From: a bacterium
GTDB lineage: Bacteria; Patescibacteriota; Patescibacteriia; UBA10025
Assembly: GCA_021815445.1 (NCBI GenBank)
Contig: JAKAGM010000001.1
Coordinates: forward strand, 299,527-363,526
DNA: 64,000 nt
Direction: 5' to 3'
The notes under the pieces were generated by a model that worked only from the letters and a program-made list of their open reading frames with translations, was not told the DNA's origin and did not search any database. Every line of letters begins with the position of its first letter. Positions within the stretch are counted from its first letter, which is position 1. This document shows, piece by piece, positions 1 through 8,125 of this stretch. A program made the position numbers and the translations under genes.

Positions 1-805
1 TGCTGTGAAAGATTCTGCTCCGATTTCGTCTGAAAGAGAATATGGCGCGCGCGCACCTCAAGTGCAGATTGTCCATTTTCCTGCACCGTTTTCTCTTCTT
101 CTTTTTTTATAATATGGTATCCGTATGATGTTTGGACGAGTTCATGAGTGATTTCCCCCACCTTCAGCTTGTCGAAAATCTGCGCATCAAATTCCGGAAC
201 AAGTTGGCCTCTTTTGACAAACCCTAGGTCACCCCCAAGTTTTTTGCCGCTTGCATCAGTGTTTCCCGGATCTTCCGAGTATTTATTAGCAAGCGCTGGA
301 AAATCAGCGCCAGGTTTGATCGCATCTGCGAGTACGTTCTCGGCTTTCTGTTTTTGGCTGTCATTATAGGCTTTCAATGCTTCCTTTTGCCCGGCATCCA
401 ATGTCTGCGCCCCTTGCTCGCGAAATTCAAGCAGTGGAGTTTCCCCTATCTGCTTAATTGCGTCCTGAATGTCCGTTACGCCAGGTAATTCAACAATCAC
501 GCGCCATGTGCTTCCAGTTTGGTTCGTTTGTACGATGGGTTCTGAAACGCCAAAAGCGTTCACGCGACGTTCAATGACGTCCCGCACACCTTCAGCGGCA
601 TTTTGTTTGTCCGCTGAGGCAAGCTGGCTGGTGTCGGCCGTGTAAACAAGTTCTGCGCCACCTTTGAGATCAAGCCCAAGATGAACTTTAAGCTCGCGCA
701 CCGTTGAGCCAATTTTTAAGTTGGGCCCTTTGGGATAATCAACGAGGCCTGCAAGCGCCGCGAGGATGAGTATACTAGCAAATGTTATCCAAACTTTTCT
801 GCGCA
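1..805 (-). CDS. Partial CDS (N-terminus in window, continues past position 1). SecD-like N-terminal TM plus periplasmic P1 head domain, followed by parvulin-type (PpiC/PrsA-like) PPIase domains.
   Basis: Manual reverse translation from the ATG at 803-805 gives MRRKVWITFASILILAALAGLVDYPKGP...LGLDLKGG...ERRVNAFGVSEPIVQTNQTGSTWRVIVELPGVTD...LLEFRE. This aligns with the E. coli SecD P1 head ([31 protein letters not shown]...TLEFR). It is followed by KYSEDPGNTDASGKKLGGDLGFVKRGQLVPEFD...SYGYHII (parvulin C-terminal half) and a second VRARHILF parvulin start. It is absent from the ORF track because there is no in-window stop. Confidence 0.6.
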
Positions 806-844
806 TGGAAATGTTAGAGTTATGTATCACATCTTAGCATAGCC

Positions 845-874
845 AAAAAACGCCCGCAATACACTAGCCGGGCG
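845..874 (-). terminator. Rho-independent terminator candidate downstream of the FG-GAP/L,D-transpeptidase gene
   Basis: Plus strand has aaaaaa then cgcccg-caatacactagc-cgggcg (6-bp GC stem). Read on the minus strand this is a hairpin followed by T6. Confidence 0.5.
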
Positions 875-901
875 AGCGCAAAACTGCGGATCGCGGCTTT
901 C

Positions 902-2308
902 TTAATCTCTGACTACCACCTTCGTGCCCATCGGAGCCCATTGATAAAGCCACTGTGCTTGCGAGTAGGGAATGTTCACGCAGCCGTGACTTTTCCTCCT
1001 GCCGAAATCATTATGCCAGTATGCTCCGTGAAGAAATCGAGGCCCGTCGTATCGCATATTCCAAAGGGTATTTGGAAGGTAATAACCGGGACCCTGATAC
1101 AGTTTTGAATACGTTTTTTCATAAATATTAAACGTCCCCTTGTGCGTGTCATACCCTGGTAATCCCGTGGAAACAAGAAAGCTGCGGACAACGCGGCCAT
1201 ACTCATACGCATATAATCTTTGCTCGTTTAAACTCACCTCTATGTATTTGGGGACATCGGTTTTCCCGTCGGCATTCCAGCTCGCAGGCGCAGTCACAAC
1301 TTCATCCTTGCCGTCACGCGTGAGGTCGCCTGCGGCGACATTAACACCTCCCCTAAAATCACTTTCATAGGAGAAAAAGTTTATTGCGTAGGGCTTTCCA
1401 TTTCCGTTGAACACCCGCACCTGCGGTCCGCCGCCTGACCGAGCTCCAACAATTATTTCATCAACCCCATTTCCATCAATGTCTCCTGACGACAAATCAA
1501 CTCCCCCCTTAAAACTGTCGCCGAAGGCCTTGAACATTCCAAAAGTAGTTTCTTTTCCCGCTCTGTTTACCACCTTTATCCAGGACAAATCCTGGCTTTG
1601 CACACCTGTAACGATTTCCGTGCTTGTGCCACCATTAACATTCGCAGTTGCTACCGTCACGCCGCCGCGGAAATTTCTATCAAAGGCAAAAAAGCTATCC
1701 ATTGGATGGCCAAAGCGGTTGAAAATCCGTACCTGCGGTCCGCCTCCGGGACCTGCGCCTACAATGATTTCTTTCTGACCGTCTCCGTTATAATCACCAA
1801 TGGCAATATTCACTCCTCCCCGGAATGATTCATTAAACGCATAAAAACCGGGTGTAAATTTCTGATGCCCGTTGACGTCAAAAACCCGCACATGGGGAGC
1901 TCCCCCTTGACGTGGCGCCGTAATTATTTCTTCCCGGCCATCACCGTCAAGATCGCCGACGGCAACATTAATCCCCGAACGCATATTTCGGTTATACGCA
2001 AGAAAGTGTGAGACCTCGCTTCCGTCTGCCCGGAGCACACGCACATTTGGTTCACCGCCCTGTCCCGGCGCAGTAACAATATCATCCAATCCAGTATCCT
2101 CAAGGTCTCCTACGGCTATCTGCACTCCCCCTTGAAATTTCTTGTCATACGGCACAATTGTTTTCTCGACCGTGTTCTGCTGGAACACCCTCACCTCGGG
2201 TGCGCGGGTGAAAGCAGCGTGGGCACTCGGTGCGGTAAAAACGAAAAGAACGCACAGGATAAATGTCCCAGCAAAAAAGAAGGGGTATGAGATAACTTTT
2301 GTTTTCAT
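902..2308 (-). CDS. Secreted FG-GAP repeat protein with C-terminal YkuD-type L,D-transpeptidase catalytic domain
   Basis: N-terminal signal peptide (MKTKVISYPFFFAGTFILCVLFVFTAPSAHA). Repeated GDxDGDG FG-GAP motifs (VGDLDGDGREEII, GDYNGDGQKEII, GDIDGNGVDEII). C-terminal HG...SHGCVN motif typical of the L,D-transpeptidase active site. Confidence 0.8.
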   Translation of the reverse strand: MKTKVISYPFFFAGTFILCVLFVFTAPSAHAAFTRAPEVRVFQQNTVEKTIVPYDKKFQGGVQIAVGDLEDTGLDDIVTAPGQGGEPNVRVLRADGSEVSHFLAYNRNMRSGINVAVGDLDGDGREEIITAPRQGGAPHVRVFDVNGHQKFTPGFYAFNESFRGGVNIAIGDYNGDGQKEIIVGAGPGGGPQVRIFNRFGHPMDSFFAFDRNFRGGVTVATANVNGGTSTEIVTGVQSQDLSWIKVVNRAGKETTFGMFKAFGDSFKGGVDLSSGDIDGNGVDEIIVGARSGGGPQVRVFNGNGKPYAINFFSYESDFRGGVNVAAGDLTRDGKDEVVTAPASWNADGKTDVPKYIEVSLNEQRLYAYEYGRVVRSFLVSTGLPGYDTHKGTFNIYEKTYSKLYQGPGYYLPNTLWNMRYDGPRFLHGAYWHNDFGRRKSHGCVNIPYSQAQWLYQWAPMGTKVVVRD

Positions 2309-2344
2309 TTTGATTTTATTGGCTTTTTTTGATTTTCTGTTTAT

Positions 2345-2376
2345 AGTATACCATCAAAACTCCTTTTTGTAAAGGG
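2345..2376 (-). promoter_or_regulatory. Extended -10 promoter candidate (TGgTATACT on minus strand) for the L,D-transpeptidase gene
   Basis: Minus-strand sequence ...ttttgaTGgTATACTataaac about 35 nt upstream of the ATG at 2308. The -35 is weak. Confidence 0.35.
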
Positions 2377-2415
2377 TAGGATGGCTATTCCTCTTGTTGC
2401 TATGACTACAGGAAA

Positions 2416-5163
2416 CTAAACAGTTCTCATCCTTCTTTGGTGCTCTTCGGTGTTGATCAGCCCGCACTTCTTATATTTCACGCCTGAGCCGCAAGGGCAG
2501 GGGTCGTTACGCCCAACTTTTTCCCCGTCAGAAGTTTTTGGCGTAGCTGATAATTGAGGCTTTTGCTCAGGATGAGGTTGCGCAGAGGACGATATGCTTT
2601 GAAATTGGCTTGGTTCGGACATCGAGATATTCGGAGTTTCGTGTAAGCGCTGAGCAAGCGGGGTTTCGGCCACAGCCTTCGCTGCGGCAACTTTATAGAT
2701 AGAATACACAATCTGCTTCTGTATATTATTCATTAACTCGGTAAAAAGTCTGTAAGCTTCTTTTTTGTACTCGACGAGAGGATCCTGCTGCGCATATCCG
2801 CGAAGACCTATTCCTTGACGCAGATGGTCCATGAGATCCAGGTGTTCTATCCAAAGCGTATCGATAGCCCTTAGATAGAGCGCACGCTCAATAGTATCCA
2901 TGAGGTCTGCATCATTCACCCGGCCGATCAATTCCTGATAGGACTTACTGGCGAGAGATGTAAGATACCCGATAATCGCAGTACGTGCTGTCGGTTCTTT
3001 CGGCATATCAGCAACATGACCGCGCATGTCCTCAAGCTTAATTCTGTCCTGAAGCGATATGGGGAAAATAGTGTCGACGACTTCATAGATCTCATCAATA
3101 TTCCAACGTGTTTGGTCGGGGTCCGAGGAGTGGAAAGAAACCACCTGCTCTATTTCTTGAGTTATCAGTTCCATGATTCTGGATCTGACATTTTTTTGTC
3201 CCTCGGCGAGCTTTGGGTTCGCTCCTCCCAGGATGCCCCTTCGGAGGCCGTATACTACCTCTCTGTGTTTATTAATAACATCGTCGTACTCTACAATATG
3301 CTTGCGAATATCAAAATTATGCCCCTCAACTTTTTTCTGGGCCGATTCTATTGATCTCGAAATCATCCTGTTCTCAATAGGCATATCATCAGGCACTCCG
3401 AGCCTATCCATCATGCCCTTCATCCTGTCCGACCCGAAAATGCGCATGAGGTCATCCTCCATGGAGACGTAAAACTGGCTTGAACCCGGATCGCCCTGGC
3501 GTCCGGAGCGTCCGCGCAACTGGTTGTCTATGCGCCGTGATTCATGCCGCTCAGTGCCTATCATATGCAGCCCTCCAAGCGACCGAACTTCATCGGCAAG
3601 TTTACTGTCAGGAGGATTCCCCCCTAAAATAATGTCGACTCCCCTACCAGCCATATTCGTCGCCACGGTGACAGCCCCCTTCCGTCCGGCTTGGGCGATA
3701 ATGAGCGCTTCTTTTTCATGGTTCTTAGCGTTTAAAATACTGCATTCGATCCCCTCCCTGCTGAGAATTTCGGCGACGAGCTCATTTTTTTCGATGGAGA
3801 TGGTCCCGATAAGCAGGGGCTGGCCGAGCTCATGACGGGTCTTGATCTCCCGAGCAAGCGCCTGAAACTTCCCTTTTTCATTTTTATATACGCGATCAGG
3901 CAGGTCCTTGCGTATCATCTCTTTATTGGGAGGGACCTGCACTGTTTCCAGTCGGTATATTTTGGCGAATTCCTCGGCTTCCGTTGCAGCGGTCCCGGTC
4001 ATGCCGGAAAGTTTTTTGTATAGCCTGAAATAATTCTGGAACGTTATTGTTGCGAGCGTTTGGCTTTCCTGTTTCACTTCTACGCCCTCTTTCGCCTCAA
4101 TTGCCTGGTGTAATCCTTCGGAGTAACGCCGTCCATACATGAGCCGGCCGGTAAACTCATCTACTATAATAATTTCACCCTCGCGGACCACATAATCACG
4201 ATCACGCTTAAATAGCGCCTTTGCCTTGAGCGCCTGCTCAACATGATGGACATTTTCTATTCCACCAGCCTCATAAATATTGCCGATGCCCAGAGAGCGC
4301 TCAATTTTAGTCATGCCTTCCTGGGTAAGTGAGGCGGCGCGCATTTTTTCATCAACATTATAGTCGGGTCCCTCTTCTAACCTTTGAACTAGCTGTGCGA
4401 ATTTATAATACAGCTGACTGGAATCCTCTGCCGGAGCGGATATGATAAGGGGGGTTCGCGCTTCGTCAATGAGGATACTGTCCACCTCATCCACTATGGC
4501 GAAGTTAAGCGACCTCTGCACACATTGCTCAAACGAGGGGGCCATATTGTCACGAAGGTAATCAAAACCGAATTCATTATTCGTGCCGTACGTAATATCA
4601 GCCGCGTAAGCTTCCTGCCTCAGTACCGGACGCAGGAAATTGGTTTGCGGGTCCTTACTCTCATACGAGGAGTCGTAGAGAAACGCTGCGTCATGCTGGA
4701 TACATGCAACGGACAGCCCGAGCGCTTCATAGAGCGGACCCATCCATGCGGTGTCCCGTTTGGCCAGATAGTCATTGACTGTTACCACATGCACTCCTTT
4801 TTGCGAAAGGGTGTTCAGACAAACGGCGAGCGTAGCAGCTAAGGTCTTGCCCTCCCCTGTCTTCATCTCAGCAACTTTGCCTTCATGTAAAACCATCCCG
4901 CCGATAAGCTGGACGTCAAAATGGCGCATGTGTAAGCTGCGCCTACTCTGCTCCCGTACAAGGGCAAATACGTCGGTGAGTATTTGGTCTATGGAGGTAC
5001 CCTGTTCGACCTTTTTTTTATATTCGATAAACAATCCGCGAAGTTTATCATCGGGAAGTTTTTTTAGGTTATCCTCAGCTGCATTAATGCTACGAACCTT
5101 CGATAGATAAGTATTGAGTGTGCGCCTATTCGGATCACCAAATAGGGTATGAAAAAGTGACAT
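2416..5163 (-). CDS. secA: Preprotein translocase ATPase SecA
   Basis: 915 aa. N-terminal DEAD-like motor (KTGEGKTLAATLAVCLN), preprotein cross-linking and helical scaffold regions, C-terminal zinc-binding tail CPCGSGVKYKKCG. Confidence 0.97.
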   Translation of the reverse strand: MSLFHTLFGDPNRRTLNTYLSKVRSINAAEDNLKKLPDDKLRGLFIEYKKKVEQGTSIDQILTDVFALVREQSRRSLHMRHFDVQLIGGMVLHEGKVAEMKTGEGKTLAATLAVCLNTLSQKGVHVVTVNDYLAKRDTAWMGPLYEALGLSVACIQHDAAFLYDSSYESKDPQTNFLRPVLRQEAYAADITYGTNNEFGFDYLRDNMAPSFEQCVQRSLNFAIVDEVDSILIDEARTPLIISAPAEDSSQLYYKFAQLVQRLEEGPDYNVDEKMRAASLTQEGMTKIERSLGIGNIYEAGGIENVHHVEQALKAKALFKRDRDYVVREGEIIIVDEFTGRLMYGRRYSEGLHQAIEAKEGVEVKQESQTLATITFQNYFRLYKKLSGMTGTAATEAEEFAKIYRLETVQVPPNKEMIRKDLPDRVYKNEKGKFQALAREIKTRHELGQPLLIGTISIEKNELVAEILSREGIECSILNAKNHEKEALIIAQAGRKGAVTVATNMAGRGVDIILGGNPPDSKLADEVRSLGGLHMIGTERHESRRIDNQLRGRSGRQGDPGSSQFYVSMEDDLMRIFGSDRMKGMMDRLGVPDDMPIENRMISRSIESAQKKVEGHNFDIRKHIVEYDDVINKHREVVYGLRRGILGGANPKLAEGQKNVRSRIMELITQEIEQVVSFHSSDPDQTRWNIDEIYEVVDTIFPISLQDRIKLEDMRGHVADMPKEPTARTAIIGYLTSLASKSYQELIGRVNDADLMDTIERALYLRAIDTLWIEHLDLMDHLRQGIGLRGYAQQDPLVEYKKEAYRLFTELMNNIQKQIVYSIYKVAAAKAVAETPLAQRLHETPNISMSEPSQFQSISSSAQPHPEQKPQLSATPKTSDGEKVGRNDPCPCGSGVKYKKCGLINTEEHQRRMRTV

Positions 5164-5247
5164 AGTGATGCTTATTGTATCGCGTTTGGACTAAAAGTAA
5201 AAGAGGGCGCTTGACCCCCTTATGTTCGTTGCTCACGGCTGAAACAC

Positions 5248-6135
5248 TTATGCTCCTTTCGGAATTCGTTTGGGATATGACTTGTAGCAAATCAGCTTGT
5301 GCACGATTTTTGCCGCAATAAAGTCAGGCGCTGCGACTCCAGGGATTGGCGCTAGCTCGACTACATCGGCGCCAACAACATTGCATGATCGGAAAACGAA
5401 ACGCAGTGTACTCATGAGGTCATCCCAAGTCCAACCTCCTGGCTCAGGAGTTCCTGTCGCGTGCATGAAGGATGGATCGAGGACATCAAGATCAATTGTC
5501 AAGTAGACGTGCTTTGTTAAACGGCCAAGTACCGCCTCAAATGGGGGCGGGCTGCCGTAGAAGACGTCATGCTGCCATCGGCGTGTGGAAATCGCTCGAG
5601 CTTCCTCGGCGCATTGACTTCGAATGCCGCATTGCACTACGTTCGAGACGACCTCTCGGCAACGTTTCATCACACATGCATGATTATATCGAGATCCCTC
5701 GTACTTCTCACGCAAATCGGTGTGCGCGTCAAGCTGGAGAATTGAAAGGTCATTGTACTTTCTTTGATACCCCCGCACAGCTCCAAGGGTAATAGAGTGT
5801 TCGCCGCCCAGCGTAATCTGAAATTTCCCGTATTGGGCGTTTTTTGCCGTAACGTGCTGAACCATATTAATCACCTGCGCCGGTGAATCAGTGGAAGGTT
5901 CCAGCTCGGGAAGCGTATATACCGGCAGTTTCGAAATATCTTGCTTCAATTCAATATCATAGAGCTCGACCTGCCTCGATGCTGTAATAATCGCTTGAGG
6001 GCCGAGACTCGTTCCGTGCTGATATGAAACAGTGCCTTCATATGGCACGGGAAAAATGACGACCCGGGACTTCTTGAAGTTCGGGTTTTCGATGCCGTAA
6101 TAATTATACGGGGGGCGTAGAGAGACTAAAGACAT
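5248..6135 (-). CDS. speB: Agmatinase (arginase/ureohydrolase family)
   Basis: 295 aa. GGEHSITLGAV, LQLDAHTDL and DLDVLDPSF...GTPEPGG match the Mn-binding arginase-fold motifs. Lies directly downstream of an arginine decarboxylase gene. Confidence 0.85.
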   Translation of the reverse strand: MSLVSLRPPYNYYGIENPNFKKSRVVIFPVPYEGTVSYQHGTSLGPQAIITASRQVELYDIELKQDISKLPVYTLPELEPSTDSPAQVINMVQHVTAKNAQYGKFQITLGGEHSITLGAVRGYQRKYNDLSILQLDAHTDLREKYEGSRYNHACVMKRCREVVSNVVQCGIRSQCAEEARAISTRRWQHDVFYGSPPPFEAVLGRLTKHVYLTIDLDVLDPSFMHATGTPEPGGWTWDDLMSTLRFVFRSCNVVGADVVELAPIPGVAAPDFIAAKIVHKLICYKSYPKRIPKGA

Positions 6136-6141
6136 AATAAG

Positions 6142-7683
6142 CTACCAACCAAAGAGTTTTCCCACTTCTTCTGCCGATTCTCGACGGCGTATTGTTTTCG
6201 CCTCACCGCTCGAAAGACTTATTTTAGCAGGAGAGGACAATAGGCAGTGATGCGAAGCAAGGGCGTCCTGATATGCTCCTGTGTCTAGGAAGGCCACATA
6301 GAGATTCTCCCCCTCTGGCAGATCCTCGAGCCGAGGAAGCAGAAGGTAAGCCCCGTGCGCAATGTATTTATCATCTGTGTCACAACTCAATCCTGCAAAC
6401 CAGCATCGGTGAAACTTTCGCGCGTCAAGCTTATTGATCGGAACAACGTGCCACATCTGGTGTATGGCCCAAGTATCGAGAAGATCGTTCATAAAACTCC
6501 CATCGATGATATACCACTTACGGGCATTCCCCTTGGGAATGTTCTTCATGGAGATGACTTTAAAAACCGAAATTTGCGCCGGTGCGATGATATAGCGCCC
6601 CCATTCACAGATAATATCTGGGTGATTTATTTTTTTCGATTCGCAAAAATGAACCATAAACTTGATAAGCTTCCTGACGAGATTATCGACACTGATGACT
6701 TTTGTGCGCTCGTAAGGTATCGGCATCCCGCCGCCGATATCCAATGTGTCTAATGACGGGTTAATTTTCTGTAAACGTACATAAAACTGCATTGCGCGTT
6801 TTACTGTATCAAGTATGTGTTTTGGTTGCTCAATTTGCGAGCCAACGTGATAGTGGAGTATTTTTAGGTTCTTTATCTTGCCAAGACGGAGAATTTCACG
6901 AGGAAGAAGCCCGAACCTGTTAATTCGCTTGTCCCAATGGGAATCGACTGAGACGTCAAGGTCTATGCGAATGCCGACATCTCCTCGGAATGCTTTTAAA
7001 AGTTCGTACTCATGGAGATCTTCGATGATGGGAATAATTTTCAGGTCATTACGCAGTAATTCATCGATCAGCTCAAGATACTTTTGATCCTTCGGGCCGT
7101 TACAGAGCACTTTTATTTTCGGATTGAAATTTTCCTGCTCCCACATCCTCTTGACTAAGTAGAGCTCATTATACGAGGCAACTTCGAGATTAGCGCCCTC
7201 TCCGACGAGAGGAAGGATAAACTCCTTGTTTTGGTTCACCTTCATTGGGTAATGGTAAAAAAACTTGCCTTTGTAACGCGAGATCTTGATGTAGAAATTG
7301 AAAATACTCAATAGGTCATCAAGCCTGTCCTTTGCGATAAACGGAAAGAAAAGCTCAAGAGGCGTACCGAATTTCTTCACAAGCTCTTTGACATTGTACA
7401 GATAGTTTCCTTCTTGCACGATAAGCTCACCGTCTTTTGCAATGTCAAAAACGTCGGTGTTGAAATCGGCATTACCGAGCTTCCAGAATTTCTTCTGCTT
7501 TCTGCTCTGGGGGCTGTTATACTTACCGACCTCCGTCTTGACATCAAGAGGAGTCGGAATCTTCATCTCAGGGAGCCAGCGCGCTAATACTTTTTTTTGG
7601 CTGTCTCCATTTGCTTCACTGCCTTCTTTGGTCAGGGTTAAGCTCTTCCTCGTGGTTGGCGCTGCGGTAATATGGTTATTCAT
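6142..7683 (-). CDS. speA: Biosynthetic arginine decarboxylase (fold-III PLP decarboxylase)
   Basis: 513 aa. HYHVGSQ...FYVRLQK...LDIGGGMPIPYE aligns with the E. coli SpeA HFHLGSQ...FYVELHK...DVGGGLGVDYEG motif. Operon partner of the agmatinase. Confidence 0.75.
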   Translation of the reverse strand: MNNHITAAPTTRKSLTLTKEGSEANGDSQKKVLARWLPEMKIPTPLDVKTEVGKYNSPQSRKQKKFWKLGNADFNTDVFDIAKDGELIVQEGNYLYNVKELVKKFGTPLELFFPFIAKDRLDDLLSIFNFYIKISRYKGKFFYHYPMKVNQNKEFILPLVGEGANLEVASYNELYLVKRMWEQENFNPKIKVLCNGPKDQKYLELIDELLRNDLKIIPIIEDLHEYELLKAFRGDVGIRIDLDVSVDSHWDKRINRFGLLPREILRLGKIKNLKILHYHVGSQIEQPKHILDTVKRAMQFYVRLQKINPSLDTLDIGGGMPIPYERTKVISVDNLVRKLIKFMVHFCESKKINHPDIICEWGRYIIAPAQISVFKVISMKNIPKGNARKWYIIDGSFMNDLLDTWAIHQMWHVVPINKLDARKFHRCWFAGLSCDTDDKYIAHGAYLLLPRLEDLPEGENLYVAFLDTGAYQDALASHHCLLSSPAKISLSSGEAKTIRRRESAEEVGKLFGW

Positions 7684-7792
7684 GTCTGGTTATAATATTT
7701 TTACAAATGGAATAGTATAGTTAAAACCTGAAAGACACAATGAAAAAAAGCTGTGGATAACTCAGGAAATGGCCGCACGTTAAAATATGTAC

Positions 7793-8125
7793 CTACAGGA
7801 AGGAAGCGCGGGGGGACCTTTTCCTCTGCGACTGGAGTTTTTCCTTATACCGCTCGACTTGCCTGACTAACTTAGGCATACAAAGATCAATAGCTTCCTG
7901 TATGTGCTCAGCCCTCTCGCCAGCTTTAAAATATCGCCCATTGACTAGCGCTGATGCTTCAGCACGGAATCTGACGCCCGTAGTTTGATTTTTGTCAGCA
8001 TCGAGCTCAACTTTTATTTCCTGTATGGACTTAGAAAAATGTGAAAGCTTTGCCGTATGCTTGATAACATATGCTTTCAGGGTATCGGTGAGCTTAAAGT
8101 CTTTTGCAGATATAATAACGTTCAT
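7793..8125 (-). CDS. hpf: Ribosome hibernation promoting factor (short HPF/RaiA family)
   Basis: 110 aa. MNVIISAKDFKLTDTLKAYV...IQEIKVELD...GERAEHIQEAIDL is the S30AE/YfiA fold pattern. Confidence 0.8.
   Translation of the reverse strand: MNVIISAKDFKLTDTLKAYVIKHTAKLSHFSKSIQEIKVELDADKNQTTGVRFRAEASALVNGRYFKAGERAEHIQEAIDLCMPKLVRQVERYKEKLQSQRKRSPRASFL

Follow-up and report, generated by a model that had tools for sequence, protein, structure and literature searches.

SecDF stands beside the SecYEG channel, and in Thermus and Deinococcus the proton gradient swings its P1 head; the head binds the polypeptide as it emerges and draws it out on the trans side of the membrane. Parvulin chaperones are also described on this side. 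PrsA of Bacillus and Staphylococcus (4WO7, 2JZV, 1ZK6), an extracytoplasmic, membrane-tethered parvulin, serves bacteria that have no outer membrane, acting on proteins as they exit the Sec channel; E. coli SurA (1M5Y) is a soluble periplasmic protein with two parvulins and N- and C-terminal chaperone domains; and PpiD-YfgM and Mpn444 sit on the Sec translocon as separate, non-covalent polypeptides. How the Sec channel hands its substrates over to folding helpers, with no ATP outside the membrane, is an open question. Here we describe a SecD in which a parvulin is instead an internal domain. Its gene begins in a 64,000-nucleotide stretch of a Patescibacteria (candidate phyla radiation, CPR) genome (contig JAKAGM010000001.1, positions 299,527 to 363,526; hereafter the window) and runs past the left edge of that stretch.

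The full-length product of this gene, P0122 (566 amino acids), shares with SecDF of Thermus thermophilus and Deinococcus radiodurans (3AQP, 5YHF, 5XAN, 5XAP) a first transmembrane helix (TM1), a P1 base and head, and a resistance-nodulation-division (RND)-like bundle of TM2-6; the two are matched at E 1e-83 by phmmer and E 1e-25 by Foldseek. SecD and SecF are fused in Thermus but encoded by separate genes here, and where T. thermophilus SecDF has a short helical segment of ~40 residues at the connection between P1 base and head, P0122 has a parvulin module of 137 residues. The module is ~40-45% identical to PrsA over the parvulin; PrsA, however, carries a lipobox and an NC chaperone domain, whereas the SecD-parvulin protein has neither, has an apparently permuted strand order and uses the SecD membrane domain as its anchor. 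Assignment of the protein to the PrsA foldases was tried and rejected, its N-terminus being SecD TM1 without a lipobox and its PrsA model scores lying far under the cut-off. SurA is the best-scoring parvulin relative (53 bits), and differs in that the insert comes without the two SurA chaperone domains (N- and C-terminal) and is a single, out-of-phase unit that is covalently part of SecD.

In the window, a minus-strand ATG at position 806 opens a frame of 268 codons (806..3) that leaves the left edge and that encodes, in order, TM1, the P1 base and a parvulin. The following features of this gene are referred to below (residue numbers are those of P0122).

Window 1..806, minus strand: 5' part of secD (codons 1-268 plus 2 nt), open from the ATG at 806; the whole gene has 566 codons and continues past the left window edge.
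Window 738..794, minus strand: SecD TM1, residues 5-23, VWITFASILILAALAGLVD; a hydrophobic stretch, modelled by AlphaFold as a helix (2-23), with the NCBIfam SecDF match starting at residue 6.
Window 627..686, minus strand: SecD/SecF GG motif region, residues 41-60, VHLGLDLKGGAELVYTADTS; Pfam Sec_GG at 16.4 bits, under the cut-off of 20.3.
Window 414..587, minus strand: N-terminal half of the P1 base, residues 74-131, last strand LLEFRE; Pfam SecD_1st (PF21760).
Window 3..413, minus strand: inserted module, residues 132-268 (~137 amino acids), delimited by comparison with Patescibacteria SecDs that lack it; the P1 head starts at residue 272.
Window 96..380, minus strand: parvulin core from alpha1 to beta4, residues 143-237; Rotamase and Rotamase_3 matches, predicted local distance difference test (pLDDT) 94-98.
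Window 270-272, minus strand: codon of D179 in the motif SEDPG, within the parvulin core.
Window 222-236, minus strand: GGDLG, within the parvulin core.
Window 114-116, minus strand: codon of H231 in the motif TSYGYHII, within the parvulin core.
Window 30..71, minus strand: strand QSALEVRARHILFQ, residues 246-259, the proposed displaced beta1 (H255 at nt 42-44), joined to beta4 via a beta-hairpin with its tip at N244-G245.

An earlier note, made from the letters of the window alone, had recognised here the N-terminus of a SecD joined to parvulin sequence, and this reading stands: all the motifs that it quoted are in frame and the Pfam matches are far above chance. The hydrophobic TM1 (VWITFASILILAALAGLV) is followed by LGLDLKGG, RRVNAFGVSEPIVQ, VIVELPGVTD and LLEFRE, and then, in the same frame, by GGDLGFVKRGQLVPEFD, YGYHII and VRARHILF. 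That note was also right that the gene is partial and on the minus strand, but placed its start at 805, one nucleotide from the ATG. On the fragment, SecD_1st scores 62.2 bits over residues 74-131 (cut-off 27, E 3e-17), Rotamase (PF00639) 62.1 bits over residues 143-236 (cut-off 21.7, E ~1e-16) and Rotamase_3 (PF13616) 70 bits over residues 148-237 (cut-off 22.5, E 3.4e-19), while NCBIfam gives SecDF/SecD N-terminal matches at residues 6-154 and PrsA/PpiC matches at 152-243. Within the GG motif region, G44, L45, D46, G49 and G50 are invariant among 138 relatives. The N-terminal region scores 52 bits against T. thermophilus SecDF, with the P1 base half aligning to Thermus residues 29-124; the best stretch to E. 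coli SecD (5mg3_D) in the match tables lies downstream of it, at P0122 residues 275-543. The SecD portion of the fragment had been taken for the P1 head. We found instead that the window holds only TM1 and the P1 base (SecD_1st), and that the head follows the parvulin, beyond the window.

The complete protein was recovered by a search with the nearest full-length relative from GTDB as query. P0122 is 100% identical to the fragment over its 268 residues, and the contigs that carry it (L018, taken from an 877 kb contig, L019 and L020) show 0 mismatches to the reverse complement of the window in alignments of up to 8806 nt; the identical sequence is found on 11 contigs from several samples. Its Pfam domains are SecD_1st (74-131), Rotamase (143-236), SecDF_P1_head (PF22599, 272-368, 105.6 bits) and SecD_SecF_C (372-538), together with an MMPL match at 338-545, and AlphaFold helices at 384-540 correspond to the region of the TM2-6 bundle. 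The NCBI secD model TIGR01129 scores 399.9 bits (cut-off 244.4) over positions 1-397 of 397. D455 aligns with the proton-relay aspartate D340 of T. thermophilus SecDF. Directly downstream, with an 8-nt overlap, lies secF (298 amino acids; SecD_SecF_C 199 bits), whose product keeps the equivalents of T. thermophilus D637 and R671. The AlphaFold model of the full-length protein, built from a 138-sequence alignment, has a mean pLDDT of 90.3, and its best Foldseek matches are the SecDF structures 5XAN and 3AQP (E 1e-22 to 1e-25). Because the P1 head and TM2-6 follow the parvulin, the SecD model is passed, the proton-relay aspartate is kept and secF adjoins, we conclude that the fragment in the window belongs to a true Patescibacteria SecD with its RND-like core and proton-relay residues intact, and not to a PrsA-like protein. 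SecD and the adjoining SecF would together form a proton-driven SecDF motor in this organism, predicted to stimulate export in dependence on the proton-motive force. The checks that the earlier note had proposed (leftward extension, hidden Markov model searches and structure prediction) yielded a full SecD core with the parvulin placed inside P1. This supports its conditional inference that a protein continuing into TM2-6 would be a translocon accessory subunit carrying its own foldase.

Where P0122 has residues 132-268, SecDs without the insert (P0042, P0070, P0093, P0099, P0113, P0114, P0117) have a variable linker of 20-45 residues, which runs from LLEFRE, the strand that closes the N-terminal half of the P1 base, to the first strand of the P1 head. 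By this comparison, the module interrupts P1 from within, at one of its two base-to-head connections, on the extracytoplasmic side.

The parvulin carries conserved residues of the active-site type. Among 131 insert-bearing SecDs, D179 is present in 118, and G192, G229 and H231 are found in every one; position 226 is Thr in 97 and Ser in the other 34; and in the HIL (His-Ile-Leu) strand, H255, I256 and L257 are kept in 127, 130 and 127, respectively, with Gln replacing H255 in 4 of 131 single-unit proteins. We take H255, H231, D179 and T226 to correspond to Pin1 H59, H157, C113 and T152, on the basis of alignment to Pin1/PpiC positions and general background; PrsA likewise has an Asp at the position of Pin1 Cys113. 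The insert is 40-50% identical to active parvulins (PpiC, PrsA). Catalytic-type residues Asp179, Thr226, His231 and His255 are thus present and conserved, and the insert may have peptidyl-prolyl isomerase (PPIase) activity.

The order of the strands in this domain departs from that of canonical parvulins (beta-alpha3-beta-alpha-beta2), in which the His-bearing beta1 is N-terminal. The Pfam matches start at profile position 10 of 97 (Rotamase) and 33 of 116 (Rotamase_3), so that the N-terminal beta1 is missing; no HIL precedes alpha1, and the HIL strand lies instead 24 residues past the histidine of beta4. We consider it likely that the parvulin is circularly permuted, with beta1 after beta4 rather than before alpha1. 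Synthetic constructs in which the HIL strand was placed ahead of alpha1 were rescored with the Pfam profiles: for the window protein, the Rotamase score rose from 64.7 to 70.4 bits with coverage extending from 10-96 to 1-96 of 97, and the Rotamase_3 score rose from 73.4 to 80.6 bits. The score increased by 3-7 bits in five of five family members, whereas controls scored 64.2 bits with the strand shuffled and 63.0 bits with it reversed, neither reaching full coverage. Alignments of the re-ordered sequence to solved parvulins likewise reached beta1 (2JZV, from 30-110 to 9-110; 4G2P, from 22-104 to 5-104; 6XD8, from 20-91 to 7-91). In both the full-length and the insert-only AlphaFold models (the latter with pLDDT 93.3 and a predicted template modelling score, pTM, of 0.85), DSSP assigns strands at 229-243 and 246-259, separated by a two-residue gap, with pLDDT ~98. 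These strands may be read as a beta-hairpin, the model output giving the strands without their pairing. The residues at the hairpin tip are variable and often deleted among insert-bearing SecDs, and the spacing between the two histidines (16-25 residues, of both parities) does not inform the register of the hairpin.

Several points weigh against a permutation. The gain in bit score upon re-ordering is modest, at 3-7 bits. The placing of His231 and His255 side by side is a prediction of the permuted reading. Finally, when the insert model alone was compared with the PDB by Foldseek, no match had E < 0.001, the best being the SurA-like PEB4 (3rfw; E 0.013, TMq 0.39). A permuted central strand may itself weaken such a match, as the alignment is sequential and the structural alphabet uses the sequence separation to the nearest neighbour. 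A full-text search of open-access papers and preprints found no paper on a circularly permuted parvulin; within that literature, this would be a new topology for the fold.

A likely source for the permuted order is suggested by the alignment to SurA. The insert is colinear with SurA from alpha1-beta4 of its P1 parvulin through the inter-domain linker to beta1 of its P2 parvulin, with a stretch of 30 letters set against SurA GYHIIKKEEEKTVQENGQSALEVRARHILFQ, and with EVRARHILF in the insert facing EVHARHILL in SurA. The insert thus looks like an out-of-phase excerpt, from alpha1 of unit 1 to beta1 of unit 2, of a SurA-like tandem pair. An origin by duplication and then truncation fits, since the insert aligns to SurA P1-P2 and two-unit forms exist. 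In these relatives (P0054, P0115/L003, P0247), the order is [alpha1..beta4]-[beta1 alpha1..beta4]-[beta1]: the leading half-unit and the trailing strand both lack the histidines, and the inner, canonical unit keeps both. If the outer pieces make up a single domain, joint loss of their histidines is what one would expect. The same order of alpha1, GYHII, hairpin and HIL is found outside SecD, in a small family of stand-alone proteins (P0252, on L021, and P0386-P0393; ~9 found, ~350 amino acids, one relative labelled Omnitrophota). These have no SecD domains; an N-terminal TM helix and a SurA_N-like chaperone domain, of the PrsA/PpiD kind, precede the permuted-order parvulin, and a short C-terminal tail follows it. 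P0252, at 50% identity to the insert, has the same unusual EDPGNTDAxGKKLGG loop, and in P0388 both histidines are lost together.

Some observations on these relatives may be added. The two-parvulin SecD gene on L003 (a 281 kb contig; 6001-8078) is split by a frameshift into overlapping open reading frames (ORFs) of 439 and 268 amino acids, followed by secF; the contig name points to a long-read assembly, and the frameshift is probably a sequencing error. Several other database entries (P0022, P0028 and P0054) likewise finish with off-frame tails inside the P1 head or TM region. The best matches of the insert among 50%-identity representatives include proteins with 3-5 tandem parvulins and no SecD domains (P0241, P0242, P0245, P0250, P0256, P0258), ~430-1040 amino acids long and several of them ~660; the donor of the insert may have been related to these. 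In an insert search of a set of 1.84 billion representatives, such multi-parvulin chaperones dominate and no match reaches E 1e-30, so that a count of the fusion family is not derivable from it.

With the full-length protein and its relatives in hand, other accounts of the module can be weighed. According to the earlier note, the fragment contained more than one parvulin, with VRARHILF opening a second domain. The motif is indeed a typical parvulin beta1 that aligns with that of the second SurA parvulin, and P0054, P0115/L003 and P0247 do have two units; in the window gene, however, only ~14 residues separate HILF from the P1 head of P0122 and Pfam finds a single Rotamase stretch. The window protein therefore has one parvulin, the full-length sequence refutes a second complete domain for this gene, and the motif is most likely the displaced beta1. 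A further alternative is that the HIL strand lies outside the parvulin fold, either as a relic of a lost second parvulin or as a linker or hinge strand of P1, leaving a three-stranded parvulin or one with a borrowed strand. The resemblance to beta1 of the second SurA parvulin makes a relic plausible, and Foldseek did not recognise a parvulin in the isolated model. We nonetheless regard this as improbable: HIL is 97-99% conserved, far above a linker, while the flanking tip residues vary; AlphaFold places the strand directly after beta4, across a two-residue turn and with high confidence; the parvulin sheet has beta1 at its centre, and a domain lacking this strand would probably be unstable; in three independent contexts both histidines have disappeared together; and the stand-alone P0252 group, a separate protein family, has the same strand order. 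Scarcely credible, finally, is a PrsA-like anchored foldase (for the earlier note, a lipoprotein analogue) that borrowed a SecD N-terminus and lacks the RND-like core, or else an assembly chimera. Many short database records do read 'peptidylprolyl isomerase, partial', and in two samples the protein of one relative breaks off after TM2, but P0122 has TM2-6 with secF next to it, the same sequence recurs on 11 contigs, and hundreds of relatives have the same architecture. Moreover, the PrsA models NF002827 and NF002846 score only 49-52 bits, against cut-offs of 343-361, and over the parvulin region alone, and there is no SurA_N-type domain. The TM bundle, the core and the PrsA scores thus reject this account.

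The architecture is common among the closest relatives of P0122. All of the best 120 matches to a full-length relative (543-576 amino acids) carry both SecD and Rotamase; where names are given, these are 'protein translocase subunit SecD' and Patescibacteria or Kerfeldbacteria, and named relatives also include Komeili-, Buchanan-, Falkow-, Magasanik-, Moran-, Jackson- and Veblenbacteria. With the fragment as query, ~100 of the best 120 matches carry the architecture, mostly as truncated Patescibacteria proteins with SecD_1st and Rotamase (and in some the P1 head). Scanning GTDB genomes turned up 12 loci, whose ORFs of 559-592 amino acids have the order TM1, SecD_1st, parvulin, P1 head, TM2-6, the best at 68% identity. 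The earlier note had called the arrangement non-standard. This holds for the literature, as a full-text search limited to open-access papers and preprints found no paper describing a SecD-parvulin fusion; it does not hold as a statement of rarity, the fusion being the common form among the closest database relatives. We conclude that SecD-parvulin is a real, conserved architecture, undescribed in the searched literature, whose proteins are already in public databases. Truncated records of these genes are often named 'peptidylprolyl isomerase, partial' and others simply SecD, so that many SecD-parvulin genes are mis-named in public records.

Not all Patescibacteria SecDs carry the insert. In a sample that is small and biased to relatives of the window protein, the seven insert-less SecDs are not monophyletic, and their nearest neighbours over the non-insert columns carry the insert (e.g., P0042 and P0181, at 79% identity). 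This scatter implies repeated loss, or gain, of the insert, as judged from these alignments.

Two further observations concern the distribution. SecD-parvulin genes of the Patescibacteria type also occur in bins labelled Gammaproteobacteria, Lysobacteraceae, Nanoarchaeota, Thermodesulfobacteriota and Bacteroidales (L007, L012; P0005, P0106, P0234); these are probably mis-binned or mis-labelled contigs. In one relative, recovered from two independent samples, ENA and JGI (L001 6001-7519 and L002 2474-3992), the gene ends at about residue 433 (P0122 numbering), after TM2; no remaining SecD and no secF follow, and a 70-residue ORF and a convergent YkuD gene lie next to it. It may be a truncated remnant or mark a rearrangement boundary.

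What might a parvulin do inside SecD? We propose that it most likely acts as a PPIase or chaperone tethered at the exit of the translocon. This role is plausible because parvulin chaperones are known to meet the same machinery: E. coli SurA binds the SecYEG-SecDF-YidC holo-translocon in binding assays and electron microscopy, and AlphaFold models dock its P1 and P2 parvulins on the SecDF P1 head (PMC9987972); the Mycoplasma parvulin lipoprotein Mpn444 cross-links to SecD (bioRxiv 10.1101/2024.09.05.611430); and PpiD-YfgM associates with SecYEG (PMC9643414). The SecD parvulin would lie at the translocon exit, beside the substrate-binding P1 head, and, being covalently tethered, would work as a PPIase or holdase on emerging polypeptides; it could thereby do the job of a separate PrsA (in monoderms) or of SurA and PpiD (in diderms), and its position may couple to the proton-driven swing of the head. 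Speaking against such a role are the uncertain inter-domain geometry of the full-length AlphaFold model (pTM 0.63) and the interspersion of insert-less with insert-bearing SecDs, which indicates that some lineages can do without the insert. There are also stand-alone, membrane-anchored parvulin chaperones that carry this module, so that a separate foldase need not be replaced by the fusion. In addition, the parvulin domains of some chaperones are inactive, as in SurA P1 and the parvulin-like domain of PpiD.

These inactive domains also bear on the chief competing explanation, that the insert is non-catalytic: a substrate-binding holdase, or a structural module that acts as a lid or spacer altering capture and release by the P1 head, or that contacts the cell wall or S-layer. 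Its placement on the hinge connection of the P1 base and head would suit such a function, as would the retention of the outer unit of the two-unit variants even though both histidines are gone, the Gln at position 255 in a few single-unit proteins, and the repeated loss of the insert. The 90-100% conservation of D179, T/S226, H231 and H255 in single-unit proteins, however, is what an active site would show, and identity to active PpiC and PrsA reaches 40-50%; we therefore judge a non-catalytic insert possible but unlikely. A bolder extension of the tethered-chaperone reading is that the permuted parvulin, sitting on the base-head hinge, is mechanically coupled to the swing between F-form and I-form, such that the proton-motive force times the binding and release of substrate. 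This is doubtful; if true, it would amount to an energy-coupled chaperone or isomerase cycle on the trans side of the membrane, a compartment not otherwise known to have energised chaperones, and the fusion would serve as a 'Rosetta stone', proving for bacteria generally that SurA, PrsA and PpiD, as parvulin chaperones, act at the SecDF P1 head. As it stands, a widespread covalent fusion of parvulin and P1 is independent genomic evidence for a parvulin-SecDF partnership and makes that partnership accessible to study in one compact polypeptide. It also hints at an economy of envelope chaperones in the ultra-small CPR bacteria, and is of moderate relevance to protein secretion and CPR biology.

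The secD gene lies in the order murB, hpf, arginine/ornithine decarboxylase, arginase-family gene, secA, FG-GAP/YkuD gene, secD, secF, of which the arginase-family gene through secD occupy window 6135..1. By eye, one further feature was seen ahead of secD.

Window 845..880, minus strand: terminator-like GC-rich hairpin and U-run, after the FG-GAP/YkuD gene and ~40 nt ahead of the secD ATG.

The folded RNA has an 8-bp stem followed by UUUUUU (-17.6 kcal/mol), with a z-score of -0.82 that is not statistically distinctive, and a consensus terminator scan missed the hairpin. Upstream of the secD ATG, a scan found no sigma-70-like promoter, and there is no obvious Shine-Dalgarno sequence. On this weak evidence, secD-secF may be transcribed apart from the upstream gene. 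Elsewhere in the 64 kb window, tblastn found no further parvulin genes, a result confined to this stretch of the roughly 0.88 Mb genome, and scans for tRNA and tmRNA genes and for Rfam families at the gathering threshold gave no hits.

Between secA and secD (window 902-2308, minus strand) lies a gene for a secreted-looking protein of 468 amino acids that combines FG-GAP repeats with a YkuD (L,D-transpeptidase) domain at its C-terminus; in L001/L002, too, the SecD-parvulin gene has a YkuD gene as its neighbour. Directly upstream of secA (window 5248-7683, minus strand) are an arginase-family gene (295 amino acids) and an ornithine/arginine decarboxylase gene (513 amino acids), an arrangement that suggests a polyamine-synthesis pair.

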